NCBI GenBank assembly: GCA_000091205.1
Contig: AP006499.2
From: Cyanidioschyzon merolae
Lineage: Eukaryota
Length of the DNA stretch: 64,000 nucleotides
Direction: 5' to 3' (one strand)
The notes beneath the pieces are model-generated. The model was not told the DNA's origin and did no database searches. It worked only from the letters and a program-made list of their open reading frames with translations. This document shows positions 4,801 to 47,086 of this stretch, piece after piece. Made by a program: the position numbers and the translations under genes. Each line of letters starts with the position of its first letter. The stretch's first letter is position 1.

Positions 4801-5276
4801 TCTCGCACTGCCTGCTTGATCTGACTATGCGTTCGCGTCAGGTAGATGATTCTGGGAACCGACTGCAGGGGCGTTGGGCCCGGCCCGTTTTCAGAGCTGG
4901 CCGCAGGTACGAGGCCACGAAGGCTGGCCTCCGGTGCCACGACTGCACCGGCTGCACCCTGCACCCCCTGGAGCAAGCGCTCACCATAATCGTTCTTCGG
5001 GCTGTCATCGGCTAGTGATTTGGATATGCGCTGAGTGCTAGCCTGACCTTGAACTTGGGCAACGAGCAACGAGCGCCAGGCTAGTGCCGCACACAAGAGT
5101 CCGAGTGTTTTGCCCGTGCCCGTCGGAGACTCCAAGAGCGCGTTTTGTCCGGTTTGCAGCGCTTCGATCACATGTTCCATATACCGAACTTGACATGGAT
5201 ATGGCTCGAAGGGAAATTCTACGGGGACTTGGCGAATAAACAGCGTTCGGCCCGGAGCGGGGCTACTGGAAGCCAT
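1848..5276 (-). CDS. RTEL1: Rad3/XPD-family Fe-S DNA helicase, RTEL1-like
   Basis: N-terminal signature VEFPFEPYPCQVRYMEHVIEALQTGQNALLESPTGTGKTLGLLCAALAWR (Walker A). The DEAH box is IIIGDEAHN. There are four Fe-S cysteines (LCVHP, VRCTQL, RRCSFY, AMCPYF). Helicase-C motifs are CRGRTGEGIDFADDFGRTVILVGLPFP. The likely start is M (MASSSPAPGRTLF) at 5276; the ORF track extends to 5393. Confidence 0.85.
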   Translation of the reverse strand: MASSSPAPGRTLFIRQVPVEFPFEPYPCQVRYMEHVIEALQTGQNALLESPTGTGKTLGLLCAALAWRSLLVAQVQGQASTQRISKSLADDSPKNDYGERLLQGVQGAAGAVVAPEASLRGLVPAASSENGPGPTPLQSVPRIIYLTRTHSQIKQAVRELSRTAYGASVRTVVLGSRQHLCVHPVVSRLENATMQNVRCTQLTKERRCSFYLNAEQKFKEVGDDFFFIAVDSTSTLALPGRRPRDLEDLAAYGHQHAMCPYFLSREASAEAEIIFMPYNYLFDGKCRRSLGLSVEGDIIIGDEAHNLESICCDSLSFDFTAAERQRCVSAIQQLASALSSGLLNRDGREGSNTEPALHASDLHALLEIMVALEERISLVSQADAKASHARPGAENGGTVCFGQRRRIEGIDGVVLPGHAIESFLQCSSKDATLTEEAYERLLRGVEAAIRALTQLRQQFPDGTAAALDHSQAPEADAIETRDQGDPYTGLLHRQVRTTQRTSAAAWAAQVHALEQLSQVLELSRLFGKPETASTFAICVHEPAKGTAGTTHQAMNPSRLKTPSAYDGVGWPRQTPSQQRPPLSGTAAAEAASGKYVHQSAREHRSSTGYTLSFWCLWPGLALRRATSNAHAVLLTSGTLSPLESVASEMGASFPVRLQNSHVVDPATQVFAGILTKGPRDIQLNSSYANRHNREYISDLGSALVNIARVSPRGMLVFFPSYVLLARFVEIWQTGAFHHNNPLNPAHRGRQPTQATVWDRLNAVKRIFMEPRDADASRQTVDAYRQWISSGRDACLFAVCRGRTGEGIDFADDFGRTVILVGLPFPSTTDPRIILKRDYLERQALHLRDHGKTITGRLWYVQQCLRAANQAMGRVIRHAQDFGAILLCDERFRAHLRDLPRWLSAASSDADPRATHNIQVFERFGTFMSNLCGFWHSERIRQLSAAQLELATSVPPVRTPVDPFQASKDEQPRLQSMAQHAAMIGRQSQEYDQAGKTGTCDARRARSLSLSSQSSKRLRETNVAATAVSSTSTAEPGLVWKAKAERRAVSAVHKDAALARGSQMISKTIMERIRARVGDRTFSLIFQQMKRYYRLALIARQPQHSVELQQIQTELQRLVNDPSDFEQLRLLLGEGAPAMRSST

Positions 5277-5699
5277 CCAAGCGAAACGCCCCGCTCGAGG
5301 ACAGACGTATACGTCCGTCTGAGCGCTGCATGCTGAATGGCGCCAAGTCACTGCACTGCGACTGGTATCGGTACCCTGGGGCCTTGCAAGCACCCTGGTG
5401 CTGAGTTTGAAGGCTTGTTTTCGGGGCTTTTATAGCAAAGGAACATGCTATGGGAAATGTGACGATCGTCCATAGAATAGTTTGGGAGCGTTCTCTTTCA
5501 GTCGGGAAACTGCTGGCGTCTTCCCGCACCCGTGTGTGCGGTGAGTGGACCGCTGGTGGCGCTTTGTAGACGTCGCTACGCCTATGCGAGGGCGTTTCGG
5601 GGTGACTCGAGGATCGCTTCTCTTCGACGCGTTTTCCTCATGGAGCAGAGGCATGGTAATGTGTCCGTTTTTAAGGTTCAGCGCACCGTTGGAAAGACA

Positions 5700-7376
5700 T
5701 CACCAGCACCACCACCGCCTATCACACGGACGATGCCGCCCGTGTACAGTAGTGGCGAGAAACCCGCCCTGGACAAAACGTCTCCAACCGAGGTGCAGAC
5801 GTCTCCTAGTCCTTTTGGACCGGCCATCTACTACTGCTTCCAACGTTGTCTCATATAGTTCGACTTTGAGAGGTTGTCCCAAAAAATTCTCTCTTGTCGA
5901 CTCTGGAGGTCTCGTCTCCAGCACCGCACATTTCCTTGTATTGATTGCGGCGTTAAAGTCTCGGTTCACGAATTCCATACGTTTCTCCCCGTTGGTAGTT
6001 GTGCTTACTAGTGCGCCTAGTCCTCGAACTTTCGCCCTCCTTTCCGTTTGCTCCTCCGTCAGCGCTCCGTACTTTTTTATATCCTCAGGGGTCCGTTGGC
6101 ACTTTTCCATCTCCACGCTCTGAAGTGTACACCCCAGTTCATGGTGTGTATGCAATGCTCGGAACTCATCTACAGGTATTGTAACAAAACACCTCGCGCA
6201 CTCCTTGGATGTTCTTGTCGTTGGAGCTGGCGTAGTTCCTTTTTGTATCTTCCGGCGCCCTGCTCCATATGCCACTACGAGCCTCTGATTTTCATCCTCT
6301 TTCAGGGCACTCAACTCATTGAAAAAGTCCGCGAACGCCCGCTGCCTCCCACCGTACAGATTCATCCGCAAACGAGCCCGCCGGGGCTTGGTATACTCCT
6401 CCCACAGCGCATCCCAATGGGCAACACGAACTTCCATGAATTTCCGAAAAGCTTCAAAGTCGGCTCTTCGGCTGGTCACCTCGCTCAAAGCCTCCAGGTG
6501 ATCCTTCATTCCTGCGTTCCACTTCTCAGTTTTCTTCCTCGCATTCATCATTCCCGATTCTCGACAGTATCTCGCTCTCGAGAACCTCAAAAGACGCATG
6601 TCTTTCTGACGGAAGTTGCCGTCAGCACCATCTTCCGCACGCTTCGGTGCTGCGATGGTGATGATATTTGTGTTTCGGGGGTCCGCGCCAACGACAAGGT
6701 CGTTATCCTGCACTTTCTGCGTCTCAAGACTCGCCTCCTTCTTTTCTTCATGCTTCATCGCGTCAACGACAAGCACGTTATCCTGCACTTTCTGCGTCGC
6801 ATGTTCCGCCTCCTTCTCATCTTCATACTTCGTCACGCCAACGACAAGGTCGTTATCCTCCATCTCCTGCATCGCAGGATCCCCCTCTTTGTTTTCTTCA
6901 TCCTTCGTCACGGGCGCAGCCGAGGGCCGAACTGGACGATCTTTCTTCAACCGCCGATAGTGTATACACAAGGCTACTCCATCGGTTTCGATCAACCCAG
7001 TGAACCACTTTTGCTCGCTCACTCTCAGACGTTTGAAATTGAAGATATTCTTCCAGTACGTCTCCCGGTTTTCGCCGGTGAAGTCCTCCCTGCTAACATT
7101 GAACTCCGGACTGATCTCCTTCATGATGCCGTAGAGGACGCCGGAATCGATAGTCACGAAATGTGACTTGATATTGCACATTGGAACGATGTTGAAGCGC
7201 TTCCCCATTAGGAAAGCCTTCCGTCTCTCCCACTCTTCATTTTTGTCCTCACTTAGCTCCACCTCTGCCTTGCGTTCGAGTTCTCGGTCCAGAAACACAA
7301 AATAGCGCAGGATGAGGCGATAGTATCTTTCCTTATCTTTTTTATCTCTGATATCTTGTCTGCTGGATTCGCCCAC
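5700..7376 (-). CDS. TnpB/Fanzor-like RNA-guided-endonuclease-family protein (RuvC-like nuclease with Zn-finger); probably the 3' exon/major part of a longer gene
   Basis: RuvC-I-like motif [17 protein letters not shown] Cys/His cluster follows: CARCF...HTHHELGC...EKCQ. The RuvC-III hallmark is [15 protein letters not shown] (D-x-NAA-x-N). The N-terminus is K/R-rich ([13 protein letters not shown]-like). Upstream ORFs on the same strand in alternating frames (7253-7633, 7618-7812, 7870-8181) suggest extra exons or frameshifts. Confidence 0.6.
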
Positions 7377-8200
7377 CCGAGTACCGCACGGTGCTCTTGT
7401 ATAACCGCACGGATTACAGAAGCTTCATTCGTGCTGCCGTTTGATATCCTCATGTCCACAAATTCGACCTCATCTTCATATCTGCGATCGTTCGTGATGC
7501 CATTGATAATCGCCCATATCCCCTTGCAAGAGATACCCCCGTACAGCGCAAACACGGCGCGTATCATGAAACGTTCGAGGTTCATTGTCAAAAGGTTCTT
7601 CAGGTTCGTGATATACTTCATCGCTCCGTACATGTAAATACCCCGGTCACCCTTGTATCGAGTACCCTCGAACCCGTAAAAGGGATGTCGTTCGTGGAGC
7701 GCGTGAACCCGCCCATTTTACCCCGCGTTTCCTCTGCACCAAACACCAGGTGCCGAATAAAGGTCTTGTCAAAGAACTCGTCTGGAATCTCGACTGTTTC
7801 CACGTGCGCCACGTCTTCTTACATCTCGCGCACCAAATTCATCAGTCTTGACGACACCTTTATAATACTCTAGGAGTACAGATCGACATGCTGTCTGATG
7901 TCGTCTTGCAACTTTTGCTCATCCGAATCCTCGAGGTGTCCATGAGGGCGGGTTACCACTACCGTCCCGTCATAGTCTCGTGTTTCGTGCAGCTTCTGAC
8001 GCCGGGCCTCCCCTTTTGCTTCCGTGTCTTTTCCTGTTCCTCTGCACTTGGCAGTGTTTCTCTTTTTTTTCTGGCAGCCGGCGACACTGCGCCTCCAGGA
8101 TCCTTCATTTCTATGTCCATAACTTTCCTTTGCTATGTTTTTGAAAAAGAACGCATTTTGAACGCTTCCGTTATAAACCACGTAAAATCACTTGAATACA
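5830..8200 (-). mobile_element. putative Fanzor/TnpB-carrying transposable element (approximate bounds)
   Basis: The TnpB-like ORF lies in an AT-richer island (about 7400-8450). DNA and protein homology to the second copy (53125-53950) ends abruptly near 5830-5865, which would be the putative right end. The left bound is uncertain. Confidence 0.35.
6690..6925 (-). repeat. in-frame coding tandem repeat (~78-81 bp x3) inside the Fanzor-like ORF
   Basis: The DNA unit caacgacaag[g/c][t/a]cgttatcct... recurs at ~6690, 6773 and 6846. It encodes ...[11 protein letters not shown]... three times. The last copy is the RuvC-I strand itself. Confidence 0.7.
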
Positions 8201-8605
8201 CTCATGTGAAGATTGAAACACAATTGAATTTAAAGATTATATTATGCTACGACTTGAACGCAAATACAACTTGTGCGTTAGAGCAATACGCTATTGATAA
8301 GGATCGCGTTTCCCTTCAACGGCGAGGTACGCGTCGTATCTCATACCTGCCTGATCTGAAAGTGGGCTTATCGACTGCGCTATTGAAAAAAAGAACAGAG
8401 ACTAGCCCCTATATAGCAACGAAATAACATTTTCTTCTCCCTTCAACGATAAACGTTAAAAGGCGGGAAAGGTTTCCATTTTGTCGAAACTTTACCTTCT
8501 TGGCGGAAGATCTCGCGAGCCGGACGAGTATGCCTGGCGGGTGCTTCATGCTCCCGCACTAGCGGGTGCCGTAGTGAGATCTTGGCAGCTCGTCCGAAAC
8601 CCAAT

Positions 8606-8888
8606 TTTTATTGGAATAGGACTAGAAGTGGACAGCTCTCATCCAAGTGTCGCCTTGGTCGCAGTGATCGCTTATAGTGACCCTTTGCGCGGCCGCACGC
8701 AGAAGCTCTGTCTGCGATAATTGCTGGCTCCCAGATTGATAACGAAACCTGATCCCGTGTCGCGCAAACCACGCCTCTAGTCGACGCCCCCAGTGGTATG
8801 GCAAAACCTTTCTGTCCCCGTGATGCATCCACACAAGCGGTTTAGGCGCTGTAGCGGGTGCTCAGCGCCGGCACTCGGCACACAATAG
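8606..8888 (+). repeat. ~280-bp dispersed non-coding element, copy 1 (candidate ncRNA gene or TE terminus)
   Basis: About 75% identical over its full length to 42343-42618 in the same orientation. Shared blocks are tttatt..aggactagaagtgg, tcatcca.gtgtcg, tggtcgcag, gctggctcccaga.tgataa, cgacgccc..cag.ggt.tggca and gcgggt.ctca. No protein-level conservation was seen in any frame. Confidence 0.65.
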
Positions 8889-9346
8889 ATCGTAAAAAAA
8901 CTACCCGTACATCCGAGAGACATTATAAATAATGGAACATGGGAGTAGGGTTCTCCAGCATGATGAACGCTCTCTCGATTACCAGTACCCATCCATCCCG
9001 CGATTTTAGATCCACGGTCAACGAAAACGTCTTGTGAGCGGAGAGCGGAGCGCCGCGCGGTACGCGCTCCACCGCGCGCCCGTTGATGATCGCGAGCGCG
9101 CCGGTGCGCCGCGCACTGCACCAACGACCGCACAATGCTCACGTCCGCGTTGGATTGTCTGGGTGTTTGTTTTCTTTGCAGTGACGAGGAGGCATACGGG
9201 TTTGCGCTTACAAGTCTAGCGCTCACCGCAAGCACTGGTGGCTGCGTGAGGGCGCAGACGAAATCGGGTGGTTTTTTACCGACAGAAGCGCATTTGATCG
9301 GGGCTGGAACGCTGCGCTGCTTGCGTGTGCTCGTGCCGCTCGTACG

Positions 9347-13799: not shown

Positions 13800-14539
13800 G
13801 CATGAGTGTTTTGCTCGAACCTAAACTCTATCAGGCTTTGAGGTACCAACTTTAAGCGCCGAAGTGCTCGTCCAGCGGCACCTGACGCGTTGTCCCAGTG
13901 CCAAGCCAACGAGTTCTCCATTCGAGATGCAGCTGCGCGATGCACTCCAAGCACAGAGGTGTTCGGGATGAGGCTAGTGGAAGCACTTCACACCGTATCG
14001 TCGTGCAAGTTTGGTAGCTTTCATCTCGGGAACAATTTCAATGTCGCTTTTTGGGAATTTGCATCTTAATGAGTCGGGTAGGTGGTTTTGGTGTCCGTAG
14101 CAACATCAGAGACAGCAAAGCTTATGCGAAAAGCTGCTGTGCGTGTAGGCTACGATTCAATGCAGGAGGTGTTCGAGGCTGCATTTGTTTATCGGGTAGT
14201 CGGATACCATTGATGTATGTGAGAATAAAATGAAACGGGTCCACTTATGTGATATGGGTGCACCTGCTGAAGTTTGGGTGGCTTCCCACAGTCATCAACA
14301 CCAGCCTCGGAGTGCCTTCTCTACGACTGCTTCCTCGTTCCTCTCTGTTATCTCGCGCTTTAAAAACGCCGGACTCTCTGTTCTATCCAGTTCCGTTGTC
14401 AGTAGTTGAACGATGTTGATAGCGGTTTCAAGTCACGATTTCGCGGCTTCCAGCTGTTGTCGCGGTATTTGACGCATAGGCGGACCTCGAGATCTAACGC
14501 TCGCATCCCATTTTCATCTTCTTTGAATACATTTCCATT

Positions 14540-15150
14540 GAGGTCCTCGTAGCGGTGACACTTGTCAGGTTTTCCTGTATACCCACAGTAGCTCCTTATG
14601 CTTCGAGGCCGCCCTGTGGCGTATGAAGCCCTGCGTCATCGCTCGGTACTTAACCTTGAAGGGTACCGAAGACTCTCCTCGACGTCATCCTGCGTTACCG
14701 CGCCCGATAGCGTACAATACGATCAGGGGCTTCCTCTGGGCGAGCCCTTCAGCTATCACACTGTCTGCTTCACGAGCAAGCGAACGCTGTTCGATTCAAC
14801 GGAGGATTTCTGGAACGCGATGCTCTCCTTGATGAAACGAGAACCAGAAGGAACATCCAGGCTGGGGAACAGTTCGAGAAACGTCGAGCCGTCTAGACTC
14901 GCTTGCTGCGAAGCGACGATGCACGCCCCATTAGAAGAGAGCCTCGGGATGGTTCGAGTTCGAGTCCAAGACACTTGGATCGAAACCGAAGAGACGAAAG
15001 CCCCCCAAAGCATATCCCGCGACATGTATCGCGCTGCCTTCGGATTGCGTTCCTTCGATGGCCACAACGAAAGCAGGATATACCTTTCGAGCGAAATCGA
15101 TTGCTTGACGTGAAAAGTTCTGGGATGCATCAGCACGAGCGTATGTGCAA
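14540..15150 (+). repeat. ~600-bp dispersed repeat, copy A (inverted partner at 21180-21790)
   Basis: ccttgatgaaacgagaaccagaaggaacatccaggctgg aligns with the reverse complement of 21430-21470 (ccttgatgaaacgagtaccggaaggcaaatccgagctgg). Homology is traceable from gtagcggtgacacttg to ctttcgagcgaaatcgattgcttgacgtgaaaag. Long ORFs are open on both strands but no domain was recognised. Confidence 0.65.
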
Positions 15151-15229
15151 ATCGTGAAGAGACGGCGTGGAGTCTCTCTCTGTATATGCAGCGTCGCGCA
15201 GCGCTGCGCCCATGCTTTTTCTTAAAACC

Positions 15230-15390
15230 GAAAGATCGAAAACTTGAAGCAATCTGTATGTAAGGAAAGGAGAACCGTGGATGCTTTTTTCTACGGACTG
15301 GATAATCATATCGGTTCTGGTACAAACTTCTATTCGAGGGTGTCTCGAAACATCGTGATTCCGGTGACTTGGCGAATTCCAGCGGCAAAA
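15230..15390 (+). repeat. ~190-bp dispersed element family, copy A
   Basis: It shares ordered blocks with 32465-32645 and 46570-46755: gaaagat(c/t)gaaaacttgaag, ggaaagg/gagaa..cgtggat(g/a)c, ..ggat(a/t)..gg, and ..gaattccagcggcaa / gcattccagcggcagcac / gaattctagcggcaac. Confidence 0.6.
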
Positions 15391-16141
15391 TGTCGAAGAA
15401 TCCACTACATAACGACGACCGGGAACCCAAAAACACCATATGAACCCTTAGTCCCTCATTGCTACACCATAACGATCATGGCAGTGGATCTAAAATGGTT
15501 CATAAATGAATGGAAAGCTACGAACCGAGCGCGGAGTTCAATGTTCCGATTTTTATCTGACACTGGAGTATCGAGATGCGGAAGGTTTTGCTTAACAACA
15601 CAGTACGCGCTGTCTTGTAATTTCAACGTGCTTGGGCATGCCTCTTTGACGCATTCGAGCACCAACGAAAGACGCATTTCATTCCTTCTTGATGAAGAAT
15701 ATCGTACCGAAACGATCTGTATCAAAATGACCGATAACGTATCCTGAGGCCGTGTCCAGTTGCGAACGGGCGCTGTCATGGCCCCGAGCCTGTGCACTTC
15801 GTGCTGCTGCGAATACGCAGCTTCTAGAGCACGCCGTGCCTATGCCCGAAGCACCATTCAAAGACGCTCTATTGAGTGGACCCAAGTCCGTGTGAAGGAC
15901 CTGCCGATGATCAGGGAACGCGCCTGACTGGTAGCACAAGGGCTCCTGGCACACGGCTTGGCTGTTGCGGTTTGGCGAGCTTTTCCCAGTTCGAACAGTG
16001 CGTCTGTGAATAGGTCGCTCAAGCGTCGATCACGTTGAATTTCTGTTGCTGACCCCAAACGAAAGCTTTGTAAAGGAGAGGAGCGCGAAAGGTGCCGCTC
16101 GGGAGCTTGTCTTGCGAACAAACACGAGAACCTTTCCAAAC

Positions 16142-19100
16142 ATGTTCATCTTTCACCCGAACGTCGTTCGCGCAGCGCTAGCTGCGAAACTCACCCTGGG
16201 CTTCTTTCTAACTAGCCTGCTGGTCACCGTCAATGATTTCCGGGAGCAACTATCGTGCTGGGCTCCTCTTTTGTACACGATTCTTGTGGGTCCTCTGAGC
16301 GAGTTCAGCTACACGGGTGCCATTCAACGCACAGTATCGGGGTTGTTGTACGGTTCGCTTCTGGGTACGGCTTGTGCTGCTGTGGTGTTTTTCTTGGCAC
16401 GCTATTATGTATGGCTGCGCGTTATCTGCATCTTTGTTATTTTCATACCTATAAGTATACTTCGTCTGAGCGATCAGCATGCGCTGTTCTCAATCTTCAC
16501 CGCAGTCGCGCTTGGTCTCGTGCTCAATGCTGCCCTGGTGTCGCAAGCACTCGAATCCGACACGTCTACAGCGAGCAACATTGGGCGCTCTCTCGCGGAG
16601 ACAACTTCCTCGGTGCAGTCGCTTATGCGACAGTTTTGCATTTCTGCCTCAGTGGCATATGTTGTTGGCGTTTTTATTGGCGTCGTTGTGTTACCAGTGC
16701 CGGCTTCAGCTGCTTTGCGGGATAGACTTGAACGCGTCCTCCAGGAGCTGGGTAAGCAAGCGAGCGCGCTAGCTAGCGAGCTCTTTGGATTGGTAGCACA
16801 GGCCGAGGGCGCATGGCGAGAGATCCAGCGGCATAGCAAGAAAACATCTGGAGAAGCCGCCTCCACAGAAGAGTTGCAGGATTCTGACGGCATGTTATCG
16901 GCAACGACGACGACGATGGCAACCAGCGCGCAGTCGCCGCTGTCCGGCCTGAGGGGGAATGGGAAGCGCGTTGAACAATGTTTCAGCGTTGACTTTACTT
17001 TTTTAGACGAAGAAGACTATGCGGCACTTCACGAGGAGGGCGCTCTCTTCCTACAAGAGCAGGTTTGGGAACTGCAGTCACTTGTCGGATTCGCTTATCG
17101 AGAATGGACCTTTCCGGAAGTTACATGCGATCTTTCGATCACGGCATGGGCACGGATGATTCTTGCTGTTCGAGAGATCGTCTCGCGTCTTGCGGGTGTT
17201 GAATGCATCCTCAGCGAAAGACGCCGACGATCTGGGTACAGTATGGGTCTGGCGCTGGATCAGCTCTTTCGGCAGTCACTCGTTGATGTGATGCGCATGT
17301 GGGCCATCATCTCTGCGAGCTGTTATCAGTTATCGGGAATGCTTGCAGACTCACATTGGCGATGGTATCGTTGGACCGCGCAACGGCACCTGGGGAAGCG
17401 CTCCCGCCATCGAGCATTCTCTGTGTTGAAAACGCTGCTCGAAACGAAGAGCCTTATGCGTATTCGACAAAGCGCGCTCGCTAGTGGGCTTGTCGGCTAC
17501 GAAAAGTACTGGCAGCAAATGATGATGCTTTACCAGCAACAGCAGCAACACGATCATTGCAATGACCGTAATGCGTATAAGCTTGACCGCAACGGATCGC
17601 GCTGCACTGCGCTATTTGCTGAAGACGTTAGCGCTGCCTGGTTCAGCGCCATCATGATGCATCGCATTTTGGATGCAGTGCTAGAAGCGTATCACGCTGC
17701 AGAGGCGTTTGCGCCTCCACCAGAGACTAGTGCACTGCCTCTGTCCGGTCGGCTCCGTTCCGGTGCTGATCGTGTTCGAACACTCTTGTTCAACCTCGTG
17801 AGCGAGTTTTTCGCATTGCCCATCCAGATCGGAACGGATGTTCTACAGCTTGGCCTTCGATTGCGTGTTTTGCGCTGGAACGATGTTCGGGAAATGCTGC
17901 GCACCCATCACTGGCAGGTTGTTTTCTTCTGGAAATTTTTCCTGCTTTCAGCGACAACGCTCTCGGTGGTTACGAGCATTCCAAACAAAACAGCGCTGCG
18001 GAGCGACTGGAACATTATTTGGCTGTACTACTCGGTAATAATCACAGCGAGACCCACAACGGAATCCGCAGTAAGCATTGGTCTCATGCGCGTGAGCGGG
18101 ACCATCATCGGGGCTGCTTTGGGCTTTCTGGTCATGTTTCGACCGGTCATTGGGACCAACGCCTACGCCGTCACCGCTCTAAGCGTTTTTGTCCTCTACA
18201 TTCTCTTCTACCTGGCGCATTTGAATCGCCACAAGTGGTTGCAGTACGCATCGCGAGTCGGAGTTCTAACGTACACGCTGGTGGTGATGTGCCAGTACCA
18301 AGGCGTCAATTACGTCGCCCAATGGCAGTACGCCTTGAGTCGCTGCGTCATGACCTGTGCGGGTGTGCTGCTCGCCGTGCTTGTCGTTGCCGCCTTGTCT
18401 CCACGAATGGCAGTGCGTGAATCGCGCCAAACCCTGGGACAGGTCTTCCGTGCCGCGGCGGAGGCAGCACGCTCCTTTCATGCCGTTTACGTGACCCGCG
18501 ATACTTCGACACAGTTACCCGCTAGATTAGACCCTGCGTTTCTACTGGAACACTATTCGAACTTTAGTTCACTGATGCGTTCACCATCATTAGTGACGCT
18601 GTTGAGAGAACACGACGCTGCGGATGAAACACGACAGCGTCGTGCTGCGCGAGCGACTACCGCCAATGCAGCAGCAGACGCAGAAGCTACGTCCACGCAG
18701 GCACTGAATTCTTTCAGTGACCGGGCAGCGTCGCTATTACTCCAAAGGATAACAACAGATCTTATGGTGGCACGTGCCGCTGTCCGTCCAGCGTTCGGTG
18801 GTAACACACAGTTCACAATGTGGCGCTCAGGATTATTCAGTGCGCCGCAATACATCTTGCGCGGTATAGACAGTTCGTGGCTGCTGTTGCTGCGTTTGGA
18901 AGTTATTGAGGGTGTTCTCGAGCGTCCTCCGATTTATACGAACCGCTACACGGGAGCAGCGATACGTTTATTTATTCAACCGCTCGAGTCGGAGTGGCGC
19001 GCTCTTTTCGATGCACTGCACGCGCTCAGCGAAGCAATTCATGCGTACCTATCAGCGTTTTCGCTTTGGCATGATCTCGGGCTCGAGCGGGCATGCCGAT

Positions 19101-20410: not shown

Positions 20411-21179
20411 TCGCCTCTCTGCTTTGCTATGTCAGGTACCCGTGACCTGTTGAGGTCAGCGGTTTGCATCAGATCCTGAGCCGGCGATTGTTTGGTAGGT
20501 TTCTCGTCGTCGTTGGCGCTGCCGCACAATGGGCGCGGCTCTCGAAGCGGCGCGTGCGCACTCACCGCTCATCAGGTATTGCTTCGGGTGCCATAGAGGG
20601 CGCAGCAAATGCGCAGAAAACGCCCAGCTTGCGCTTGGTACCCGCCTGTTTGCCGGGTCGATTGCATCCCGACCCTCGATGGGAACACCGGTCCGAGAGT
20701 AGACCCGTCTGGTGTTATCGGTGGAGGTGCGTTTCTCTCGCTACACTAGTATGGAACTAAAATGGAATACCGAATGACTGGCTCTCTTCCTGCTAGTTCA
20801 AATTTTTACGAACATGGGTAGATATACAGAAAGTCCAAGTCACGCAGTAATGGCTTACGAATTCCTAAGCGGGTGTAGGAATCTCACTCGTGGTTCCGGA
20901 GAATCTGCTTTGACATTTTTGCCCATGGAATTCTTCGCGTCACCGGAATCCATGTGATTTGCAATGTCCTCGAGCACGCGTTCGTAAAATAACCAATAGT
21001 ATGACCCAAATCATATGTGCAAGCGTGCACGCTACTCAATTCCTTACGTAGAGCACGCTCAAATCCCATATGCTTCAATGCTGCGAGTGCTCCATCTTAT
21101 TGCAACGCGGGAGTTCAGCGATTCACGTTGCCAGATTGACGAGGAAGAGTACTCAATGACGTCCCCGGACGATACGATT

Positions 21180-21790
21180 ATAGGCTCACGCTGAAAGATT
21201 CATGAACATTTCAGATCGAGGAGTCGATTGCTCTCGAAAGGCGAATCCTCATCTGTTTGACGCCATCGATGATACGGTACTCTAAAGCAACATGCTACCT
21301 GTAATGGTATAGGTTCCCAAGCACTTGCACATCTTTTGCATGCACGAAACCGGATACTGGACACGGATTTAAGGCATCGCTGGAATCGCATCCACTGGAG
21401 AGCGCGTTACCGCTTTGCCGGATGCGAGCGTAGAGGCATCGAAATTGCTCGATTTGATTTCCAGCTCGGATTTGCCTTCCGGTACTCGTTTCATCAAGGC
21501 CAAGATCGCTTTCCGCAAAACCTCTATCGAAGGACTTGCGTGCTCTTGCGTGTGCAGCGTACAGAGTACTCACGTTGTGCATCGCCCAGAACAAGTCTAT
21601 GATCGTAGGATACGTCACCGGGTAAAGAAATAGAGACGGACTTTGAAGCGATCCTTTTGTGCGCGTCAAGAGCAAGTGCCGGGCGACGAAACAAGGGTTC
21701 ACACCTCCAGCAAGGCGCACAGAGGCCGAGGCACAGTGAACGTACGAGAACACGTGTCTGTTTTCAAGCGTCACCGTACCGAAGGTCGTA
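21180..21790 (-). repeat. ~600-bp dispersed repeat, copy B (inverted relative to copy A)
   Basis: See copy A. The reverse complement of 21181-21240 (ctttcgagagcaatcgactcctcgatctgaaatgttcatgaatc...) aligns with 15082-15140. Confidence 0.65.
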
Positions 21791-22173
21791 TCGAGGCTCC
21801 AAATAAAAATTGATGCAAATATCTGGTGAAGCGTAGATTGCAACTACCGTCCGTGCATTCAATCCGTAGAAATCAACCGGGAGGTGCGAAATCCGGATTT
21901 TGACGCTGCCAACGACGTTTTTCGAGTGCGAACAACAGATGTAGAGGGAAAGGAGACACGGATACGTCCCAAGTCGGGAGTAAACGATTTGGAAAGGACG
22001 CAGCCCCCGAACAATCGACCAAATTCTGGTATCCATGACATAACGAAGAGATCATAGCTTAAGCGTCAACGCTCGTGTTCGGTAAGCAGTCCTTTCCGAT
22101 TTGATGCCGACTCGGGTAAAGGCGTCACAAAATCCGAGCATCTGCGTCTGCGGAGCAATCGGCCCAAGATCAG

Positions 22174-23861: not shown

Positions 23862-26793
23862 GCTCATGGCGTACTCGAAATATTGCACTGTTTGGAGCCG
23901 AGGCAGGATCGCTCCGTTTGAAGAGAACGCTCATGGAGCATCCCTTTCGGATAGCAGTGGAAGAGTTGTTGGACAAGAAAGCAGGTGCGGCCGCTTTTAC
24001 ATGAGTGTATGCGTGCGTGTCTGTGTAATTTAGCTGAAAACAGCATACCAATGCCAAGTAGTCGAGTGGGGAAATCGCTTCCCTGTCCAATACGACGCTC
24101 GACAGGTTCGTATTCCCGTAGACGCGGTACGTGATGTGGATTCTTGGTGGCAGGCGACGCGCTCACCTTGAGAAAAAGCATGCGGCACGATCTTGCAGTG
24201 CGCTAGCGACAAGCCGCATATGCCGTAAATGAGTTCTCTTCCCAGTATACAAGAAAATGCAACAGAAACTGCACTAGCAAGTGCGCATCGGTCACCGAAG
24301 AGCCCCCATCAAACGCAAAGCGCCGTTCGCTGGTGCGCTTGCACCCGCTTGGTGCCCCCAGGAGACTCGCGACGCTGTGTTGAGAGCGCAGCCTCACATC
24401 GGTACTTGGTACCCGAAATCTGCATGTGTACTGCCGCCTCGTTCTCATGCGTCAGTGAAATCACTGATGCCACTGAGCGCAGGTCGAGCCCGCAACGCTT
24501 CACGCTGCCCAAGCAATTCCGAATGTCGAGTTCGTCTGCGTCGATTCGTCTGATCGCACTGGATACCTGCCGTCGCTGCAAACACGTATTCAGGGATGCG
24601 CACTGCCGTCATCGGAAGGCCACCGAACGGTAAAAACTTTAGCTGGCGTACGGCTTTCTATTGCTCATACGGAGACTAGACAAAACTATCAGAGATATCC
24701 GCTCGGCGCTAACGAGTTCGAGGCATTGGCTGATCTCGAGACTCGTTTCCGTACAATGCAGATGGAATCGAGTGCGCACAAAAATACATTTACACGACAT
24801 GCAGTCATTCGGAATGAAGCCGGTGACGTTTTCATTACAAATAACCGAATGTTACAGCCAGTTTGCGGCATGAGCTGGTGTCGTGAGCGCGCACAGAGAC
24901 TCCATCTGGTGCACGTCGCACCAAAGCAGTGCATGTGACAGCTGAGAAGATGCTTCAGGGCGCACTTTATGCGCTTCATGAGGACGATCTCCGAACCGCA
25001 AACACACGCAACGTCTCCTCCTGCCGCCGCTGTCGATCGATGCTTTGGACCCAATCAAAAATCATCGCTCAAAGTAGCGACCAGGAGCATCTTATGCATT
25101 CGCTTTCCAACCAGAGGATATCGGAAACATGGCCTGTTGGCCTAGAGCGTCGCTATGCTCTTTCGAGGAAAGCGATGCAAACACGAGACCAGACCCGCAC
25201 GCTCGGAGCGTACCAACAGATCACAGGGACGGATCACGCCAACGCAGCAAGTCTTGATGTCGAGCGATTGCATTGCCGGTCTGCAGTGACATCGCATCCA
25301 GGCAGACATCTCTTCTGTAGACGCCTTGTTACCGTCCAGCGAGGCACGATCCAAGCACAGTCCGCTGCATTCACATCGAATGATCGCCCATGCTGTCCTT
25401 GTTATCGAACGCTCACAGCGTACTGTTCTGTGCCTCCTCCAGCAGGCCTATATGCGCATAGCGCGTATCGACCCGGAGCCTGATGTTCTACATCTGGAGC
25501 CAACGCACGCAAAGGCAACAAAAAGCAGTCCTGTTTGCGCACTGCGTCATTGGTGACGTAACTAGTACGTGAGCATGCACGTGCAGTACACGTCACCGCC
25601 ACAGCGTTGCACGAGCAATGCAACCTTAGTACCCAAGGAGTGCATTGCTCGGGAGGACGTGCAACGTGAAAAGGTTTGCGGTGCAGTTGTACAATAATAC
25701 CGTGTCCACCAACGATAAAAGCGGCTCCGGAGAAACTCCAACATATTCACGGTTCGTTCACCAGGAGAAATCTCATCAGTAATGGAGCCATCGATGGCGT
25801 TTCTCGAAACGTGACGTTCTCGGGCCTTCACGCGCGCCCTGAGGCGTTTCAAGAAGCTGAACTCGAGCGTCACTTAGTGTTGAAAAAGGTCTTGTTCTCC
25901 GGCTTGCTTCCCGTATACAGCGCGCGTCGTTCCTGAGCGCTGGAATCAGCCGGAGCAAATTGCAGTGCAATAGCCAACGAGTCTACCGGATACAAATTCC
26001 TGTTTTTCAGGTAGACAGCGGCAGCGGTACCAGTCTGCTCAAGTAGCCGGAATAGCCAGCTCGCACTGTCACTAGACAGGGCAAAAATAAATTTTCCGTT
26101 CCATACTCTGCGGTGTCAGTCTTCGAAATCCGTGAGGGTGCTACCGGCAGCAAGGGGTGCAATTCACGTACGCACGAAGCGTGCCGCTGTTATCACTGAC
26201 ACACGGTGCCGGGAACAACCAGGAGTCCGGCCCGTGCCGTACCCAAAAATCTGCTCCAACTGCTGACCCGCGCACTAAATTTCTTGTCATATGGTTCTTC
26301 AGCTTCATCAAACTCGAGTCGCACTTCCACAAAGGAGTCCACTTTGCCCATATGCTATTTCCTGCACGGGTACACTGCAGAACTTCATCGCGAAGTGCAC
26401 AAGCGTCCAACCTGAGCAAGAGGTCTCCGGCGGGAAACTGCAGCCAGACACCCTTATCTTTATGGTGCACAAATCCTTTTTCGAACCAGGTTCCCACGAG
26501 ATCCGTCAACGCCTCTAGTCCCCGAAAACATGCAAGGCGCGACGCTGGTATGCGTCACCGCTCCGCACGTGGCTACAAACCCGCACGCGCTACGGAAGCC
26601 TGCACAGTGCGTTGGACATGATTTGTCCATGTTGAAACATTTGATATCGTATTAAGACGAATCCACCAGACATGAACAGTTATCTGTCCGTTTCGTATCA
26701 TCATTTTCAGTATTTTCCGATATCAAACTTCTCCGCTGGTGGCGGCCTCCAGGGCGAGACTGCAGCTGGCATCGCGCGGCTCATCGGGGCAGC

Positions 26794-26804
26794 GGAATCT
26801 TCGA
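26794..26804 (+). promoter_or_regulatory. candidate heat-shock element (GGAAtCTTCga, two inverted nGAAn units) ~180 bp upstream of the HSP60 ATG
   Basis: Matches nGAAnnTTCn. Only two contiguous units, so support is weak. Confidence 0.25.
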
Positions 26805-26981
26805 CGGGTTTCCGCGGACGCACGCCGCTGGGACGCCATCCTAGACGGAAGCATTCTAGGTACCGCTGGCCCCAGCACGACCCGGGTGTGTGCGTAGGTG
26901 CATTCGACGTGTGTCGTACGAGGGTACAGAGCTTCAAGTATTTTGCTCGTTGAAGGATCTTTGTTCAGGGTACACAAAACG

Positions 26982-27518
26982 ATGCAAAGCATTGCCTGCT
27001 CTGGTACAGTGCAGTCACTGAGACGCCTGGTCTCCGTCGGTACGCTGGGGTGCGCACAGGCTTCATCACGACGCTGGCTCGCTAGCGGCAAGGACCTTCG
27101 CTTCGGCTCAGAGGCAAGAAACCTGATGCTTCGCGGTGTAGATCTGTTGGCAGACGCCGTCCAGACGACCCTGGGTCCCAAGGGAAGGAACGTGGTCATC
27201 GACATGAGCTACGGATCCCCGAAGATCACCAAGGACGGTGTCACCGTTGCACGAAACATCGAGTTCCGCGACAAGCACCTGAATTTGGGCGCACAGCTCG
27301 TGCGGGCGGTGGCCTCGGCAACGAATGATGCAGCAGGTGACGGAACTACGACGGCGACTGTACTGACACGAGCTATTTTCACGGAAGGTGTGAAAGCGGT
27401 AGCAGCGGGCCTAAATCCTATGGATCTCAAACGTGGCATTGATCTGGCCGTAGAGAAGGTGCTCGAAAAGCTCAAGGAATATTCGAAGGAGATCGGCGGC
27501 AAGAATGAAATCAAACAA
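26982..27518 (+). CDS. HSP60: mitochondrial chaperonin HSP60/CPN60, exon 1
   Basis: [18 protein letters not shown]... presequence, then [51 protein letters not shown]...[16 protein letters not shown]. The exon ends ...GGKNEIKQ and is followed by GTAAGT. Confidence 0.9.
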
Positions 27519-27783
27519 GTAAGTTTACGATGATGCAGCGGGCAACGACTCGACACGAACGATAGGATGGCCGGGGGGCGGCAGCCGTGCTGGGCCCCGC
27601 CGCCTCCCTCCGATGAAATCCTGAAGCGGCTCACTTGACCGCTCATGCAGTTTTGTCATAGTTACGCTGATCGTTCACGTCGACGCGCTGTCTACATGTG
27701 GGATACAAGGCCTTGTAGGGCCTGTACAGAGCAATCGAATCAGAACAAGCAAACTAACCGTGCGTGGGAGAAACGCCTTGTAG
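27519..27783 (+). other. HSP60: spliceosomal intron of HSP60 (GTAAGT ... TAG), 265 nt
   Basis: The donor caa|gtaagt is at 27519 and the acceptor ccttgtag|gtc ends at 27783. Splicing joins ...EIKQ to [20 protein letters not shown], restoring the canonical HSP60 sequence. Confidence 0.85.
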
Positions 27784-30960: not shown

Positions 30961-31610
30961 GTCGTCTGGTCACCAGCACTGTGTTTGTTGGTATGCTCAT
31001 ACAAGCGACGTTCCATACGAAGCCCATTTGGCTACCAGAAATGAATACAACTGAAACATGGAACGCGCAGTCGTAGCTAGACGCAAGTGGAGCGTCAAGA
31101 ACAAGTTCTTTCAATCGTAGTAGTGAACGCGGGTGCTTTGGTTTGTGCGCATATGTTAGGCTGTTTTTGTTTTCGTGGCGGAAGCGTTTTCGGGAGGAAG
31201 CAGCTTGCTCCATCGACAACATCGAGTCGAAAGTCACGATGAATGAAAGACCGCAGGTGCGGTCATCAGGATGACGTCTCAGCGTCCTTCGCGCACGCCT
31301 CCGAGAACAATGTGTCTGGCATAGCATCGCAGCACTGAAGCAGTTTGATGGGCACCCATGTAAGAAGGTAATGGAACGGATCCATTTCTCTAACTCGGAC
31401 GTGCACGCTGAAATTTGTGTCTCTTCCAAGGATCAGCAGCACCAGACGATGCGGACTTTTTTTTCTGCGACTGCATCGTTTTCTACTCCCATATCTCGAG
31501 ATGAGAAAACGCCGGTTATTCCTTTCGCTAACAGCTGCGCTGTCAGCAATGGAAGCGTGTTGACGGCAGTGTTCAAGTCCCAACTTTGCTACGATCGGCT
31601 GTTTTCCATG

Positions 31611-31893
31611 TCATTCCCGCACAGGTACAAGTTGCGATCTACGCTGTGCTCGATACACTCATCTGTTTCGTATACAGGCTCGTCATTCCCGCACAGGTAC
31701 AAGTTGCGATCTACGCTGTACTCGATACACTCATCTGTTTCGTATACAGGCTCGTCATTCCCGCACAGGTACAAGTTGCGATCTACGCTGTACTCGATAC
31801 ACTCATCTGTTTCGTATACAGGCTCGTCATTCCCGCACAGGTACAAGTTGCGATCTACGCTGTACTCGATACACTCATCTGTTTCGTATACAG
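31611..31893. repeat. tandem minisatellite, 72-bp unit x ~3.9 (near-identical)
   Basis: The unit tcattcccgcacaggtacaagttgcgatctacgctgt(g/a)ctcgatacactcatctgtttcgtatacaggctcg recurs at 31611, 31683, 31755 and 31827. Confidence 0.9.
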
Positions 31894-32464
31894 CCTCAGC
31901 GCGCGCTTTGCACTGTCGACCCTTGGCTGCGGTCAGGTGTTTCCGCGTGTCCATCACAGCATCTCCTCGTTCTACGAGCGCCTCGGTATACCACGTGAAC
32001 GCTTGGTTCATCACTCGGTACATGCTCTTCAACGGTACTTCAGGCTCCTCCGATGCCCTTTACCGTATCCGCTCCCGGTACCGTACCGTGGAGTCATGGA
32101 CGAGTGCGGCTGCGGGTTTCTCCGGGCGATGCCCCTGGTGAGTACGCTGCTCGCTGGTTACGCAAGAGTACGCTCTTCCATTCGATCAAGCATTTGCAGA
32201 TAGAAGAATCATCCATGATGGAACAAATCCGGGAAGGAAATACAGGTTTGGAGAACACCTCAAGAACGTTTGATCTGCGTACGCGCCCAACGAGCAACAA
32301 ATAGACGCGTTTCTGTCTCTCTCGAAGGGAATCAATCATGGGACGTCAAGAGGTCAGTGAACTTTCGGATTCCGCTCTTGAAGAATTCGTGAAAAGATAA
32401 TGACGAGAGTTTATCGTCGTCGATCCAAGGGCGCGAATCACGGCATCCACAAGATGCCGTGAAA

Positions 32465-32645
32465 CCAAACATTGAAAACTTGAAGCATGCGTAGCTTGAG
32501 CATGCTACACGTCAGAAAAGGAGAAGCGTGGATACTTGTATGGATGGATTGGATAAGAATAGCGAAAATGTTCTGAACGATTGTTAGAGAACGTCGCGAA
32601 TGATCTTCATGTCAGGTGTCGTTACGAATTCTAGCGGCAACAACT
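32465..32645 (+). repeat. ~190-bp dispersed element family, copy B
   Basis: attgaaaacttgaagcat ... gaaaaggagaagcgtggatac ... ggatggattggataag ... gaattctagcggcaacaac. Confidence 0.6.
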
Positions 32646-32843
32646 CGGAGCCACCCCGAAACGACTCTCGATCATCCTGAAACAATTTCGAGTCCCTTAA
32701 CCTTCATTGCTGCACTTCGGATACTTTTGTTGTCCAACAAAAGAGTTCGGAAACAAACCATCGAAATGCAAGCACAGAACGAGCAGTCCAGGATTCCAGT
32801 TTATGCGGACTCTGGTACACCAGACGACGAACAGACCCAAACG

Positions 32844-42342: not shown

Positions 42343-42618
42343 TTTATTCTAGGACTAGAAGTGGGTAGCGTTCATCCACGTGTCGTCATGGTCGCAGCGG
42401 TTTCCGAGTCTATCGCTTTGTGCTGCCGCATGTTGTAGGTCTGTCTGCAGAGCTTGCCGGCTCCCAGAATGATAATTAGCCGTGATTCCGTGTCAGGCGT
42501 AGGATTCTGCGAGCCGACGCCCTCAGCGGTGTGGCAGAGCCATTCTGTCTCCATGCAGCATCCGTACCAGCGGTATAAGCACCAGTGCGGGTACTCACAA
42601 TAATCACTCGGCGCATAG
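42343..42618 (+). repeat. ~280-bp dispersed non-coding element, copy 2
   Basis: See 8606-8888: ...tttattctaggactagaagtgggtagcgttcatccacgtgtcgtcatggtcgcag...gctcccagaatgataattagccgtgattccgtgtc... Confidence 0.65.
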
Positions 42619-44548: not shown

Positions 44549-45777
44549 AATCCCGACATCCATTCGCCGAGGTAAACGCTTACGGATGATATGCGAACGA
44601 CCTTGGGAGTCCAGAGGCGACCACTCTTAGTGTATCACTTTGCTCCGTGCGCTTGCAAGGCTGAGAGCTCCTCGCAGAGGCTTCGATGCGTTGCGTGATC
44701 GTCCCGCACTGGAACTCCGTCGACGTTGTTGTATAGGCGGGTTTTTTGTGGGTGTATGTTCACGGGTGCGGGTACCTCGTTCCGCTGACTCGGCGGCAGT
44801 CTGCGGTGATTTTCGTTCGAGAGCGTGCCAGAGCGTTCCGCCGGGTGCATCTCTGGTGCAGGACAGCTCATTGAGCGAGCGGCCCATACATGATTCTATG
44901 GTGCGAAGAGCGCCCCACGTCCGACGCTGTAACCTTCGTGCCGCCTCAGCGACTGTTGACGAACGGTGCGCTGGAGCCACAGACGCGCTGACCATGCGGC
45001 AAGGCACTGCGTAGTCGTTGCAACGGAGGTTTCCTCAGACGCAACCACTAGCGACGGAAACGGGACACCACTTCACTCGCCCGTATGAAAGGTTACGGAA
45101 GCGATAGCGCGTGTAGAGCGGATGCGCCCTGTGCCCAACGGATACCACATAACCAGTGCGAGGACGCATGCGGAAACGTCGCTCCAGACACACGGGGTCT
45201 GGCTGGGGCTCGTGGAACACTGCAACTTGTCGTCAGCTGCTGGGTCTCAGTTGTGGTCGACACCCGTGTCAGTGGAAAGTGGAACGGATCCACTTTACTG
45301 ACTCTGGCGAACACCATAACGCTTGAGTATTCGCCATTGGTATCAACAGAAGCCCTTGCGGGCGTTTGCTTACACTGTTTCCTTTGCTTCTCTCTTATTT
45401 CGGCTTTTCAATACGGGGGTCTCTCCTTTCGCTCCAGCTCCATTGCTAACAGTGGCTGAATATAGGTGGCAGCATTCAAGTCCCGATGATGCTGCCTCCA
45501 ACTGGTGTCGATGCGTTTCATACACAGGTGGATGCCACGATCTGTGCTTCGTTCGCTGTTCGCGTCTTCCTTGTACACAGCCTCGAAGAGTCGCTTCGCA
45601 ATGGTGACATTCGATAATGGCGAGGACTTTCCAGGTGTGCACCACACCTTCCTCTCTGAGGGCCTGCATGTGGCGCATAGGGGCTTGTTTCAGCGCTCTG
45701 TTACCGGCAGTTGACGGGCTCAGAAGGCTGCTGGCGAGATCCTCCTCCAGTTCCGTGCCCAGTTCGGTATCGGACGA

Positions 45778-46608
45778 TCACGGGTTTGTTCTGGGCAATC
45801 CATGCATTGGTCTATGACTCTGTCCGCTATACGCACAAGCGCATGCTGTTGCATAGCATTGGTTATCATTCGCTTCCTTGCATGTTCTTCGTTTTCTGAG
45901 TACGCTTTCCGCAAAATATTCCGATGAACGTACCGGGGATCGAAATCTCTTACCGACTTGTGGGCGTAGCGTCGAGGGGTTCCTTCCGTTTTCGGCAATG
46001 GGGCCAAGGCTTGTGATACGCCCTGTTGCGTCGCGCGCTTGCTGGCCCTTGCTGTCATTTTTCTCGTTTCTGAAGACGAAGATGACAGGCGTGCGAGCAG
46101 CATGGATATCGGTAGCTGCCTGTCGAAGTACCGAAGACTCATTGGTAAAGCGTGTCTTCGGTTGCCACGGGGCCTCGTATACTCTCGTTCGGCTCGCGCG
46201 GAAGAACCGGCATAGATGATCGCTCTCCTCGGATGCATACCGTTGCAAATCGCACTGGGGAGCATGTTCACGAAACCGCGCCTCTCCATCACCTGTTGCT
46301 CCTGCGCGTATGCCCCTTTCCGGGAGGAGGTACGTTGGCGCTCTGAGCTGGCGGTAAAGCGTATAGGACTTTCGAGGATGATAACGCTTGGCTTTCTTCC
46401 AGTCGTTTGAGAGTTCCCTGAAATGCTCGCGCGTAAGCTGCGTAGATCGTTTCGTGAACTCGATATCAAGAACCAGCCCCTCATGTTCTCCGCCGCTCTT
46501 CTCGCTCTCCATCGGACGCCTCTGTGCCGCCGTTTCAAGGACGCGCGCATCTATAACGAAGCGAAAAACAGAAAGATTGAAAACTTGAAGAAAGCGTGAT
46601 TCGATCAT
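45778..46608 (-). CDS. hypothetical protein (one of two overlapping 276-aa ORFs in different frames on this strand; possibly a frameshifted or intron-containing gene, or a pseudogene)
   Basis: Mixed-composition ORF (…GLVLDIEFTKRSTQLTREHFRELSNDWKKAKRYHPRK…). Its twin 45720-46550 is in another frame. No domain was recognised. Confidence 0.2.
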   Translation of the reverse strand: MIESRFLQVFNLSVFRFVIDARVLETAAQRRPMESEKSGGEHEGLVLDIEFTKRSTQLTREHFRELSNDWKKAKRYHPRKSYTLYRQLRAPTYLLPERGIRAGATGDGEARFREHAPQCDLQRYASEESDHLCRFFRASRTRVYEAPWQPKTRFTNESSVLRQAATDIHAARTPVIFVFRNEKNDSKGQQARDATGRITSLGPIAENGRNPSTLRPQVGKRFRSPVRSSEYFAESVLRKRRTCKEANDNQCYATACACAYSGQSHRPMHGLPRTNP

Positions 46609-46755
46609 GATTCAGGTATGGAAAGAGGGAGAAAGGAAGCCTGTACATATGAATTGGATACAGACGTTGTGTATCGTTTCTAGAAAACCGTTTTTCATTC
46701 GTGTCGCGACTCATCTGCATTCCTTTTCGGTATTTGCATTCCAGCGGCAGCACGT
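46570..46755 (+). repeat. ~190-bp dispersed element family, copy C
   Basis: gaaagattgaaaacttgaagaaa ... ggaaagagggagaaagg ... gaattggatacagacg ... gcattccagcggcagcac. Confidence 0.55.
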
Positions 46756-47086
46756 CGAAACAGACACGCCGCACCGACGATCGACGATCCGGAAGCAACG
46801 TATGGAACGGATATCCCTTCATGCCGCACTTGGAATGCCCATGCACTGCATCTCAAAAACTTGCGGAAAATTTGAACATAGGGACAAAGCGAGTTGTTCC
46901 GTTTTCCATCCTATTCTGGCGTGGGACTAGCGCAGTTTCCAGAGTCGGTAGCGTCCACTGCCCAGAAGTGCTGCTCTGCCTAGACTGCAATTCATCAGCT
47001 GCGACCCATATTTCAGAGCACAATCCCTGACGGATGCTCGAATAAATACTTTATACGATTGGATATGGTACTCGAGGATACTCGTA

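Follow-up and report, generated by a model that had tools for sequence, protein, structure and literature searches.

The ~190-bp repeats that a sequence-only reading described in this DNA are short stretches within four old, mutated copies of a ~1.38-kb DNA transposon and, as such, genomic fossils. The explanation to which we give a probability of about 0.82 is that they are ancient, neutrally decaying copies of a class II transposon of the IS630/Tc1-mariner type, an internal-deletion derivative of a Fanzor1-carrying element that is by now inert. The analysis covered the window, that is, the whole 64-kb stretch of DNA presented here, and the four transposon fossils make up 9% of it.

The sequence-only reading started from ordered motifs shared by three copies on the + strand, all in intergenic positions, and these observations are sound. 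GAAAACTTGAAG has exactly three exact occurrences (15238, 32474, and 46579, all on the + strand; chance expectation 0.2), ATTCCAGCGGCA with at most one mismatch has three in the window (15376, 32628, and 46738), 138–159 nt downstream of GAAAACTTGAAG in each of the three copies, and all three copies lie in ORF-poor gaps between genes. The size of ~190 bp given to the element does not stand. In a three-way alignment of the segments, similarity already continues past 190 bp, blastn pieces of 0.3–1.2 kb between four large ORF-poor gaps tile 1.3–1.7 kb, and blastn and nhmmer place the homology colinearly over ~1.36–1.67 kb. A nucleotide HMM of the family (nhmmer; model positions 3–1404) finds exactly four copies in the window (Table 1). 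The count of three had overlooked copy D on the opposite strand, in which both marker motifs are mutated (GCAGCATTGAAG, ATTCCATGGGCA). Copies A and D are joined by a single gapped blastn alignment of 1242 columns (E = 1e-75), while the remaining copy pairs reach E = 1e-13 to 1e-38 per piece in sensitive blastn searches; pairwise identity is ~58–62% in these blastn alignments and ~56–62% among the copies overall.

Table 1. Copies of the 1.38-kb family in the window, with the mapped parts of copy A. The strand is the sense strand of the transposase and Fanzor remnants.
Feature	Coordinates	Strand	Ends	Basis and remarks
Copy A	14212..15568	- (the sequence-only reading was oriented +)	TIRs 14212-14236 and 15543-15568; TA at 15569-15570 (consensus mapping)	nhmmer 14210-15585, score 1226; includes the earlier segment 15230-15390
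Copy A, transposase-derived segment	14737..15489	-		From the 5' ~250 codons of an IS630/Tc1-mariner DDE gene; mapped via consensus
Copy A, best-preserved transposase N-terminal HTH remnant	15169..15447	-		93-codon open stretch
Copy A, Fanzor1-derived segment	14237..14792	-		3' end of Fanzor1 gene and 3' untranslated part
Copy B	31353..32817	-	TIRs 31353-31377 and 32793-32817	nhmmer 31350-31682, 31826-32312, 32318-32834; earlier segment at ~32465-32640
Copy C	45261..46927	-	TIRs 45261-45285 and 46903-46927, then TA	nhmmer 45259-46945, score 1022; earlier segment at ~46570-46750
Copy D	20744..22118	+ (inverted relative to A-C)	TIRs 22094-22118 and 20744-20768, TA flank	nhmmer 22121-20728, score 1190

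The copies are unequally preserved. Copy A retains remnants in frame for both of its protein parts. Copy B has suffered a ~155-nt deletion (nhmmer model positions 729–885 are absent, and positions 259–331 are repeated), which, together with an internal 72-bp tandem array at 31538–31969, splits its nhmmer match. The array consists of ~5–6 units duplicating part of the Fanzor-derived zinc-ribbon region, and its length differs between strains, being ~144 nt (two units) shorter in L015 and L024. Copy C is the most decayed and carries internal insertions; its positions 45411–45689 match the Fanzor1 HMM described below with E = 5.7e-5.

What had been called the 190-bp element is the helix-turn-helix (HTH) remnant of copy A, which matches positions 15–112 of the family protein profile with E = 3.6e-41. 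The two motifs are the antisense of transposase HTH codons, ATTCCAGCGGCA corresponding to FCRWNS and GAAAACTTGAAG to LQVFDL; in copy A itself, the reverse complement of the former encodes ..CRWNS.. and that of the latter ..LQVFD... The special status attributed to the motif blocks was not recovered. In seven copies found independently of the motifs, the best 12-nt windows match the consensus at 0.83–0.87, within the permutation 95% limit of 0.888 and with no outliers, and the 185-nt region of the earlier reading ranks 165th among 1196 windows of the same size for conservation. A ~190-bp SINE, MITE, or small-RNA gene family had been suggested; on that view, the repeats would be transcribed (e.g., by pol III) and numerous in the genome. 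The ordered motifs common to three same-strand copies and the existence of additional copies elsewhere would suit such a family, but the homology extends over 1.38 kb to sharp ends far beyond 190 bp, the region is conserved no more strongly than the remainder of the element, and it reads as antisense of transposase codons, all of which makes the suggestion scarcely credible. A SINE would be expected to have an internal pol III promoter (A/B boxes or a head derived from tRNA, 5S, or 7SL), an A-rich or LINE-derived 3' tail, and TSDs of variable length. Searches of the element against Rfam and for tRNAs gave no match, no pol III B box is present in the window, there is no poly(A), and the ends are terminal inverted repeats (TIRs) and not those of a SINE. 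RNA folding of the element is no better than that of shuffled sequence (z-scores +1.09 and -0.68), which speaks against a small-RNA gene.

The family is not confined to the window. A metagenome scan with both motifs separated by a gap of 120–150 nt returned 18 matches, eight of which are the same region in strains 98–99.4% identical to the window, while another nine represent two new loci, E (L010) and F1 (L022). The remaining match, L018, was rejected as a family copy, being a chance occurrence inside a bacterial gene. Copy F2, which has no motifs, lies 5 kb from F1. Copies E, F1, and F2 are also recovered by nhmmer on other contigs, and two partial copies, G and H, came from a protein search: a profile search of 5.8 billion proteins returned two ORFs only, P0160 and P0161, which are read-throughs of G and H. 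Nine distinct copies are thus known, A–D in the window and E, F1, F2, G, and H on other metagenome contigs; the notion of a dispersed mobile-element family was correct in a general sense, and the further genomic copies that it implied exist at five more distinct loci. No copy pair exceeds ~62% identity over the copy length, and short stretches of G and H reach 65–75%. The same search of 5.8 billion proteins revealed neither an intact autonomous partner nor any close relative, in intact form, of the transposase or Fanzor parts, which counts against the proposed explanation, and sequence searches of the PDB with the consensus peptide and profile gave nothing meaningful.

The ends of the ancestral element were obtained from a majority consensus of 1380 nt, built first from seven copies and then from nine. 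The two consensus ends, derived independently of each other, form TIRs of 25 nt: the 5' end reads CACCCATGTCAGAATAAAATGGAAC, the reverse-complemented 3' end reads CACCAGTGTCAGATTAAAATGGAAC, and the two agree at 22 of the 25 positions; a search for such repeats had been proposed in the earlier reading, and they are present. Conservation is flat along the unit and drops abruptly at both ends. Of 14 copy ends, seven adjoin the dinucleotide TA (five of seven on one side of the element, two of seven on the other), a share close to the ~54% that 26% decay per site (74% retention) would predict, with no young copy among those known. The consensus regains long open frames, which lie on the strand opposite to the orientation chosen in the earlier reading.

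It is in the comparison with MITEs that the suggestion comes nearest to the truth. A MITE is usually under 800 bp long, has TIRs and a TSD, and lacks coding capacity. Like MITEs and other non-autonomous deletion derivatives, the family has TIRs with a TSD and no intact gene, and its members were presumably moved in trans. It would therefore qualify in the loose sense of a non-autonomous, MITE-like TIR element, but its 1.38 kb are about double the upper size usual for a classical MITE, and its interior is mostly recognisable gene remnant. “Non-autonomous deletion derivative” is the better name.

The larger part of that interior comes from a transposase. The 5' ~250–260 codons of the consensus match the NCBIfam IS630 model NF033545 (E = 3e-15; model positions 20–260 of 299) with 56.4 bits, a score below the model’s cut-off of 100 bits, which is intended for intact proteins. 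The match to Pfam DDE_3 (36.1 bits, E = 7e-9) exceeds the gathering score of 28.6, and a weaker match to Pfam HTH_Tnp_Tc3_2 was found (E = 5.6e-4). The scores climbed as copies were added to the consensus, from 36 to 56 bits for NCBIfam IS630 and from 23 to 36 bits for Pfam DDE_3, as expected of a real ancestral transposase signal. The motifs FVAIDETGF, GYAxRGSR, and (I/L)(M/L)D(S/N)IAFHKS are visible, the first catalytic D lying in AIDET and the second in IMDSIAFH (ILDNITFH in copy E). The third catalytic residue finds no placement, and the IS630 match stops at model position 260 (of 299), where the Fanzor part joins on. By its transposase homology, TIRs, and TA flanks, the family is assigned to the IS630/Tc1-mariner superfamily, with the catalytic triad incomplete in the match. 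It shares with that superfamily (ITm) a DDE_3 core with DET and DNxxxH-type motifs, a Tc3-type HTH, short TIRs, a TA target, and a size of ~1.3 kb. It differs in that the 3' third of the element is derived from Fanzor1, that the third catalytic residue cannot be identified, and that no intact member occurs among the copies.

The last ~170 codons of the consensus are the 3' part of a Fanzor1 gene, in a frame other than that of the transposase. They read ..KKPVIVGYGTGRGNGEGHRGEPSVPVKGMYRAMKQAF..AVDIWENLTTVKCHRCEG..FRLCMKCVDNSRKQRNRDLNTAINILQLLTTELERKERPAYLKP, and the zinc ribbon within them has the form LTTVK-CHRC-x25-CMKC-VDNSRKQRN-RD-LNTAINIL (..LTTVKCHRCEG..FRLCMKCVDNSRKQRNRDLNTAINILQLLTTELERKERPAYLKP). 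The Fanzor/TnpB signature has been defined as D-X(125,275)-[TS][TS]-X-X-[C4 zinc finger]-X(5,50)-RD (Bao and Jurka, 2013, PMC3627910), and its C-terminal portion, [TS][TS]-X-X-[C4 zinc finger]-X(5,50)-RD, is found in the consensus. A custom HMM built on the C-termini of eight Fanzor1 proteins from the supplement of that paper recovers the consensus at E = 1.9e-15 (53.7 bits). It was run on 1868 six-frame fragments taken from both the window and the consensus, and all its other matches below E = 0.8 lie in TE-derived DNA. In copy A, the RuvC-II region, the TT-xx-C4 zinc ribbon, the NRD motif, and the ERP tail can be traced, with the fragments KCHRYEDL..RLCVKYRDNSWKPRNRDL at 14423–14563 and TAINIVQLLTTELDRTESPAFLK at 14337–14432. 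Against this stands the Pfam TnpB/Cas12f zinc-ribbon model PF07282, which gives ~21 bits (E ~ 4e-4), under its threshold of 26.3. That weak Pfam match had raised the idea of a TnpB-only, IS1341-like element, which was dropped, as the N-terminal two-thirds match IS630/DDE_3. The Fanzor homology (HMM positions 39–176) sets in ~50 codons ahead of the zinc finger, and the DNA upstream of this point is transposase-derived. The RuvC-I aspartate, placed by the signature 125–275 residues ahead of the zinc finger, is absent from the Fanzor part of the consensus. A full-length Fanzor1 or TnpB protein has ~600–800 aa. The Fanzor part is a gene fragment; lacking RuvC-I, it does not amount to a Fanzor gene.

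The Fanzor homology begins about where the transposase homology ends, and the junction lies at nt ~795–850 of the reverse-complement consensus, placed to within ~60 nt. The two parts could in principle have formed one gene of a small autonomous element, since decayed, in which a mariner DNA-binding and partial DDE region was fused in frame to a Fanzor RuvC/zinc-ribbon region. The parts are contiguous and on the same strand, the frame assignments of the consensus are unstable at the level of 1 nt (the relative frames in the seven-copy consensus differed from those in the nine-copy one), and one consensus frame is open for 355 codons through the Fanzor-derived part up to the end of the element. 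In the better, nine-copy consensus, however, the parts stand in different frames, and neither nuclease would be complete: the transposase part is without the last ~40 positions of the IS630 model, which leaves the third catalytic residue without a place, and the Fanzor part is without everything upstream of RuvC-II, including the RuvC-I aspartate of the signature (PMC3627910). Known mariner-type Fanzor elements have two separate full genes, and we consider a single fused gene unlikely.

In the deletion-derivative explanation, which we prefer, the ancestor would have been a composite mariner-type element of the order TIR–transposase–Fanzor1–TIR, as in Pythium (PUl-1) and an algal virus (PGv-1). 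An internal deletion is proposed to have left three-quarters of the transposase gene, from its 5' side, joined to one quarter of the Fanzor1 gene, from its 3' side, between two intact TIRs. The 1.38-kb non-autonomous product would then have been moved in trans by the transposase of an intact partner and have inserted at TA between genes, after the lineage split from its sequenced relatives. Since then the copies have decayed, and they are presumably inert at present.

The state of the copies agrees with such decay. None of the ungapped blocks has a period-3 signal in its conservation. A star tree of equal rates, in which base retention is q = 0.736 per copy, accounts for the seven full copies, with a variance of pairwise matches per column of 22.9 against 22.2 ± 0.8 simulated and with 137 invariant columns against 134 simulated under the star tree; the substitution pattern is indistinguishable from equal-rate neutral decay, and each copy has lost ~26% of its bases. 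A protein-coding gene family was considered and rejected: six-frame fragment BLAST gave matches on both strands in shifting frames, and there is no period-3. The copies themselves are free of coding selection. One observation counts against the preferred explanation, namely that both 12-mers are intact at five loci, which under neutral decay would need roughly 1000 genomic copies or less-decayed copies; the local density of four copies per 64 kb would allow ~1000 copies in the genome.

A different view would take the copies not as mobile DNA but as paralogous non-coding loci under selection (lncRNA genes or co-opted regulatory modules), or as segmental duplications. The full-length copies A–D, E, F1, and F2 each cover essentially the whole element with few indels (~55 gap columns in 1386 between copies A and E), every copy in the window occupies an intergenic gap, and the two 12-mers are intact in five of nine copies, all of which would fit that view. 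It is nevertheless very improbable in the face of the TIRs, the TA flanks, and the transposase and Fanzor homology, and the substitutions match equal-rate neutral decay. The copies have no fixed position relative to neighbouring genes, adjoining divergent, convergent, and tandem gene pairs alike, and syntenic sites in relatives lack the element.

These sites were compared in related algae. Compared with the 5'-nucleotidase of Cyanidiococcus yangmingshanensis, that of the window is 78% identical; the figures are 82% for a JGI metagenome relative and 66% for Cyanidium caldarium. Proteins identical to those of the window were found on JGI metagenome contigs only, and the window is taken to come from a hot-spring red alga like Cyanidioschyzon or Cyanidiococcus. 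Cyanidiococcus (L005) and two JGI relatives (L006, L007) share the gene order of the window, and the comparison of filled and empty sites covers sites A, C, and D, with flanks too diverged for base-level alignment. At site A, the gap between the pentapeptide-repeat and FUSC genes measures 2344 bp in the window vs. 725 bp in L007; at site C, the gap between the TyrRS gene and a 557-aa gene measures 2539 bp vs. 644 bp in L005 and 629 bp in L006. No match to the family was found in ~57 kb of the relatives’ DNA. The short gaps without a copy at sites A and C support insertion after the split from these relatives. Site D is ambiguous and counts against it, as the gap in L007 is equally long (1920 bp) and has no recognisable copy inside. 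This FUSC-like/DUF547 gap (L007 6740–8660) resembles neither the window nor the 1.38-kb family, and another insertion, specific to that lineage, may be present there.

Mariner-type Fanzor1 elements with TA duplications are known from Pythium and an algal virus, and one Fanzor1 family, CMe-1A, from C. merolae (PMC3627910). PUl-1, PUl-2, and PUl-4 of Pythium ultimum and PGv-1 of the Phaeocystis globosa virus (PMC3627910) have the TA target duplication in common with the 1.38-kb family, their TIRs of ~24–33 nt resemble the 25-nt TIRs found here, and the order TIR–transposase–Fanzor1–TIR on one strand in PUl-1 is the same. Their C-terminal Fanzor1 motifs also occur here (GYG..G..PVKG..A(L/M)K, TT/TS-xx-C4, and NRD.NAA.N). 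Those elements, however, are 3.4–4.4 kb long, whereas the present one holds ~250 transposase and ~170 Fanzor1 codons in 1.38 kb and no complete gene; the host here is a red alga, and all known copies are decayed by ~26–30%. In a pairwise BLAST of PUl-1 against the consensus, the Fanzor part gave 35 bits (from EQRALACAADSVL..KPVIVGYG onwards) and the transposase no match, which counts against a close relationship. CMe-1A and TE-N2_CMe of C. merolae are like the 1.38-kb family in being Fanzor1-related, in belonging to the same algal group, and in having many decayed copies. No nucleotide similarity to the family consensus was found for CMe-1A (best blastn match 21 bits, E = 1.8). CMe-1A is ~3.2 kb long and was reported without TIRs and without determined TSDs, whereas the 1.38-kb family has TIRs and TA; the zinc finger of CMe-1 is degenerate, and the 1.38-kb family consensus retains CHRC...CMKC.

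The window, in which long intron-poor genes lie on both strands at a G+C content of 50–59%, also contains CMe-1A relatives. A full-length CMe-1A-like Fanzor1 element occupies 5730–9035 (- strand) with 82% identity over consensus nt 6–2193 and 89% over nt 2123–3152. Its 574-codon open frame (5703–7424) closely resembles the CMe-1 protein from residue ~252 on, matches the Fanzor1 HMM with E = 7e-41, and has no Pfam match. Inside this frame, at 6684–6908, three in-frame 75-bp tandem units (80–84% identical) duplicate a 25-aa acidic/lysine-rich segment that directly precedes the RuvC-I motif. Over its non-coding 5' 900 nt the element is 82% conserved, and host intergenic DNA is unalignable between this alga and its relatives. 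Such conservation in spite of unalignable intergenic DNA points either to a horizontally acquired element or to a lineage that has long stayed active. A copy of TE-N2_CMe, which equals the 5' 636 nt of CMe-1A, lies at 42138–42767 (- strand) and is 74% identical to the consensus; it pairs with the 5' end of the full element (8384–8938) to form the ~550–600-bp repeat pair of the window, which is not adjacent to copy A. The earlier reading described a ~600-bp repeat directly adjoining copy A; the 558 bp downstream of that copy (15586–16143) occur only once in the window. That repeat is either the rest of the 1.38-kb element or the unrelated TE-N2_CMe-like repeat (8384–8938/42134–42670), and the latter pair may be what was meant by the adjoining repeat. 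A decayed CMe-1A-like 3' fragment lies at 53058–53405 (- strand; 68% identical to consensus nt 2737–3083), and the ORF at 52928–53401 matches the Fanzor HMM with E = 0.006. TE-derived DNA amounts to at least 10.2 kb, at least 16% of the window; the TE content of C. merolae is usually quoted as 0.7% (PMC8504449). Two features of other kinds were also recorded. Three near-identical 119-bp tandem units lie at 1465–1825, just 3' of a DEAD_2 helicase gene (1848–5393, - strand), and a TCP-1/cpn60 ORF at 27841–29007 (+ strand) matches only Pfam model positions 173–487. The N-terminal third of the latter may lie in an upstream exon (ORFs at 26157–27533), as in a rare intron-containing gene, or have been separated by a frameshift.

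The result removes a small-RNA/SINE candidate and replaces it with the annotation of four transposon fossils. The 1.38-kb family is new, its element type, the mariner-type Fanzor1 transposon, is already described, and nothing in this presumably inert element is functionally surprising. A red-algal lineage known for extreme genome simplicity bears an old, heavily decayed DNA-transposon family, one that standard repeat masking would miss because the copies are only ~56–62% identical. With this family, a mariner-type vehicle bounded by TIRs and TA joins the Fanzor1 elements known from the Cyanidiophyceae, which is useful for tracing the spread of TnpB/Fanzor in eukaryotes. In a wider interpretation, which we advance tentatively and at somewhat less than even odds, the copies are the fossil record of a burst of a mariner-borne transposon with Fanzor1, an RNA-guided nuclease, in a Cyanidioschyzon-like red alga. 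The density in the window and the five loci with intact motifs are compatible with ~1000 copies genome-wide. If this interpretation is true, the family would be the first TIR/TA-bounded Fanzor1 vehicle in red algae, and much of the “intergenic” DNA of supposedly near TE-free genomes would be unrecognised ancient transposon debris.
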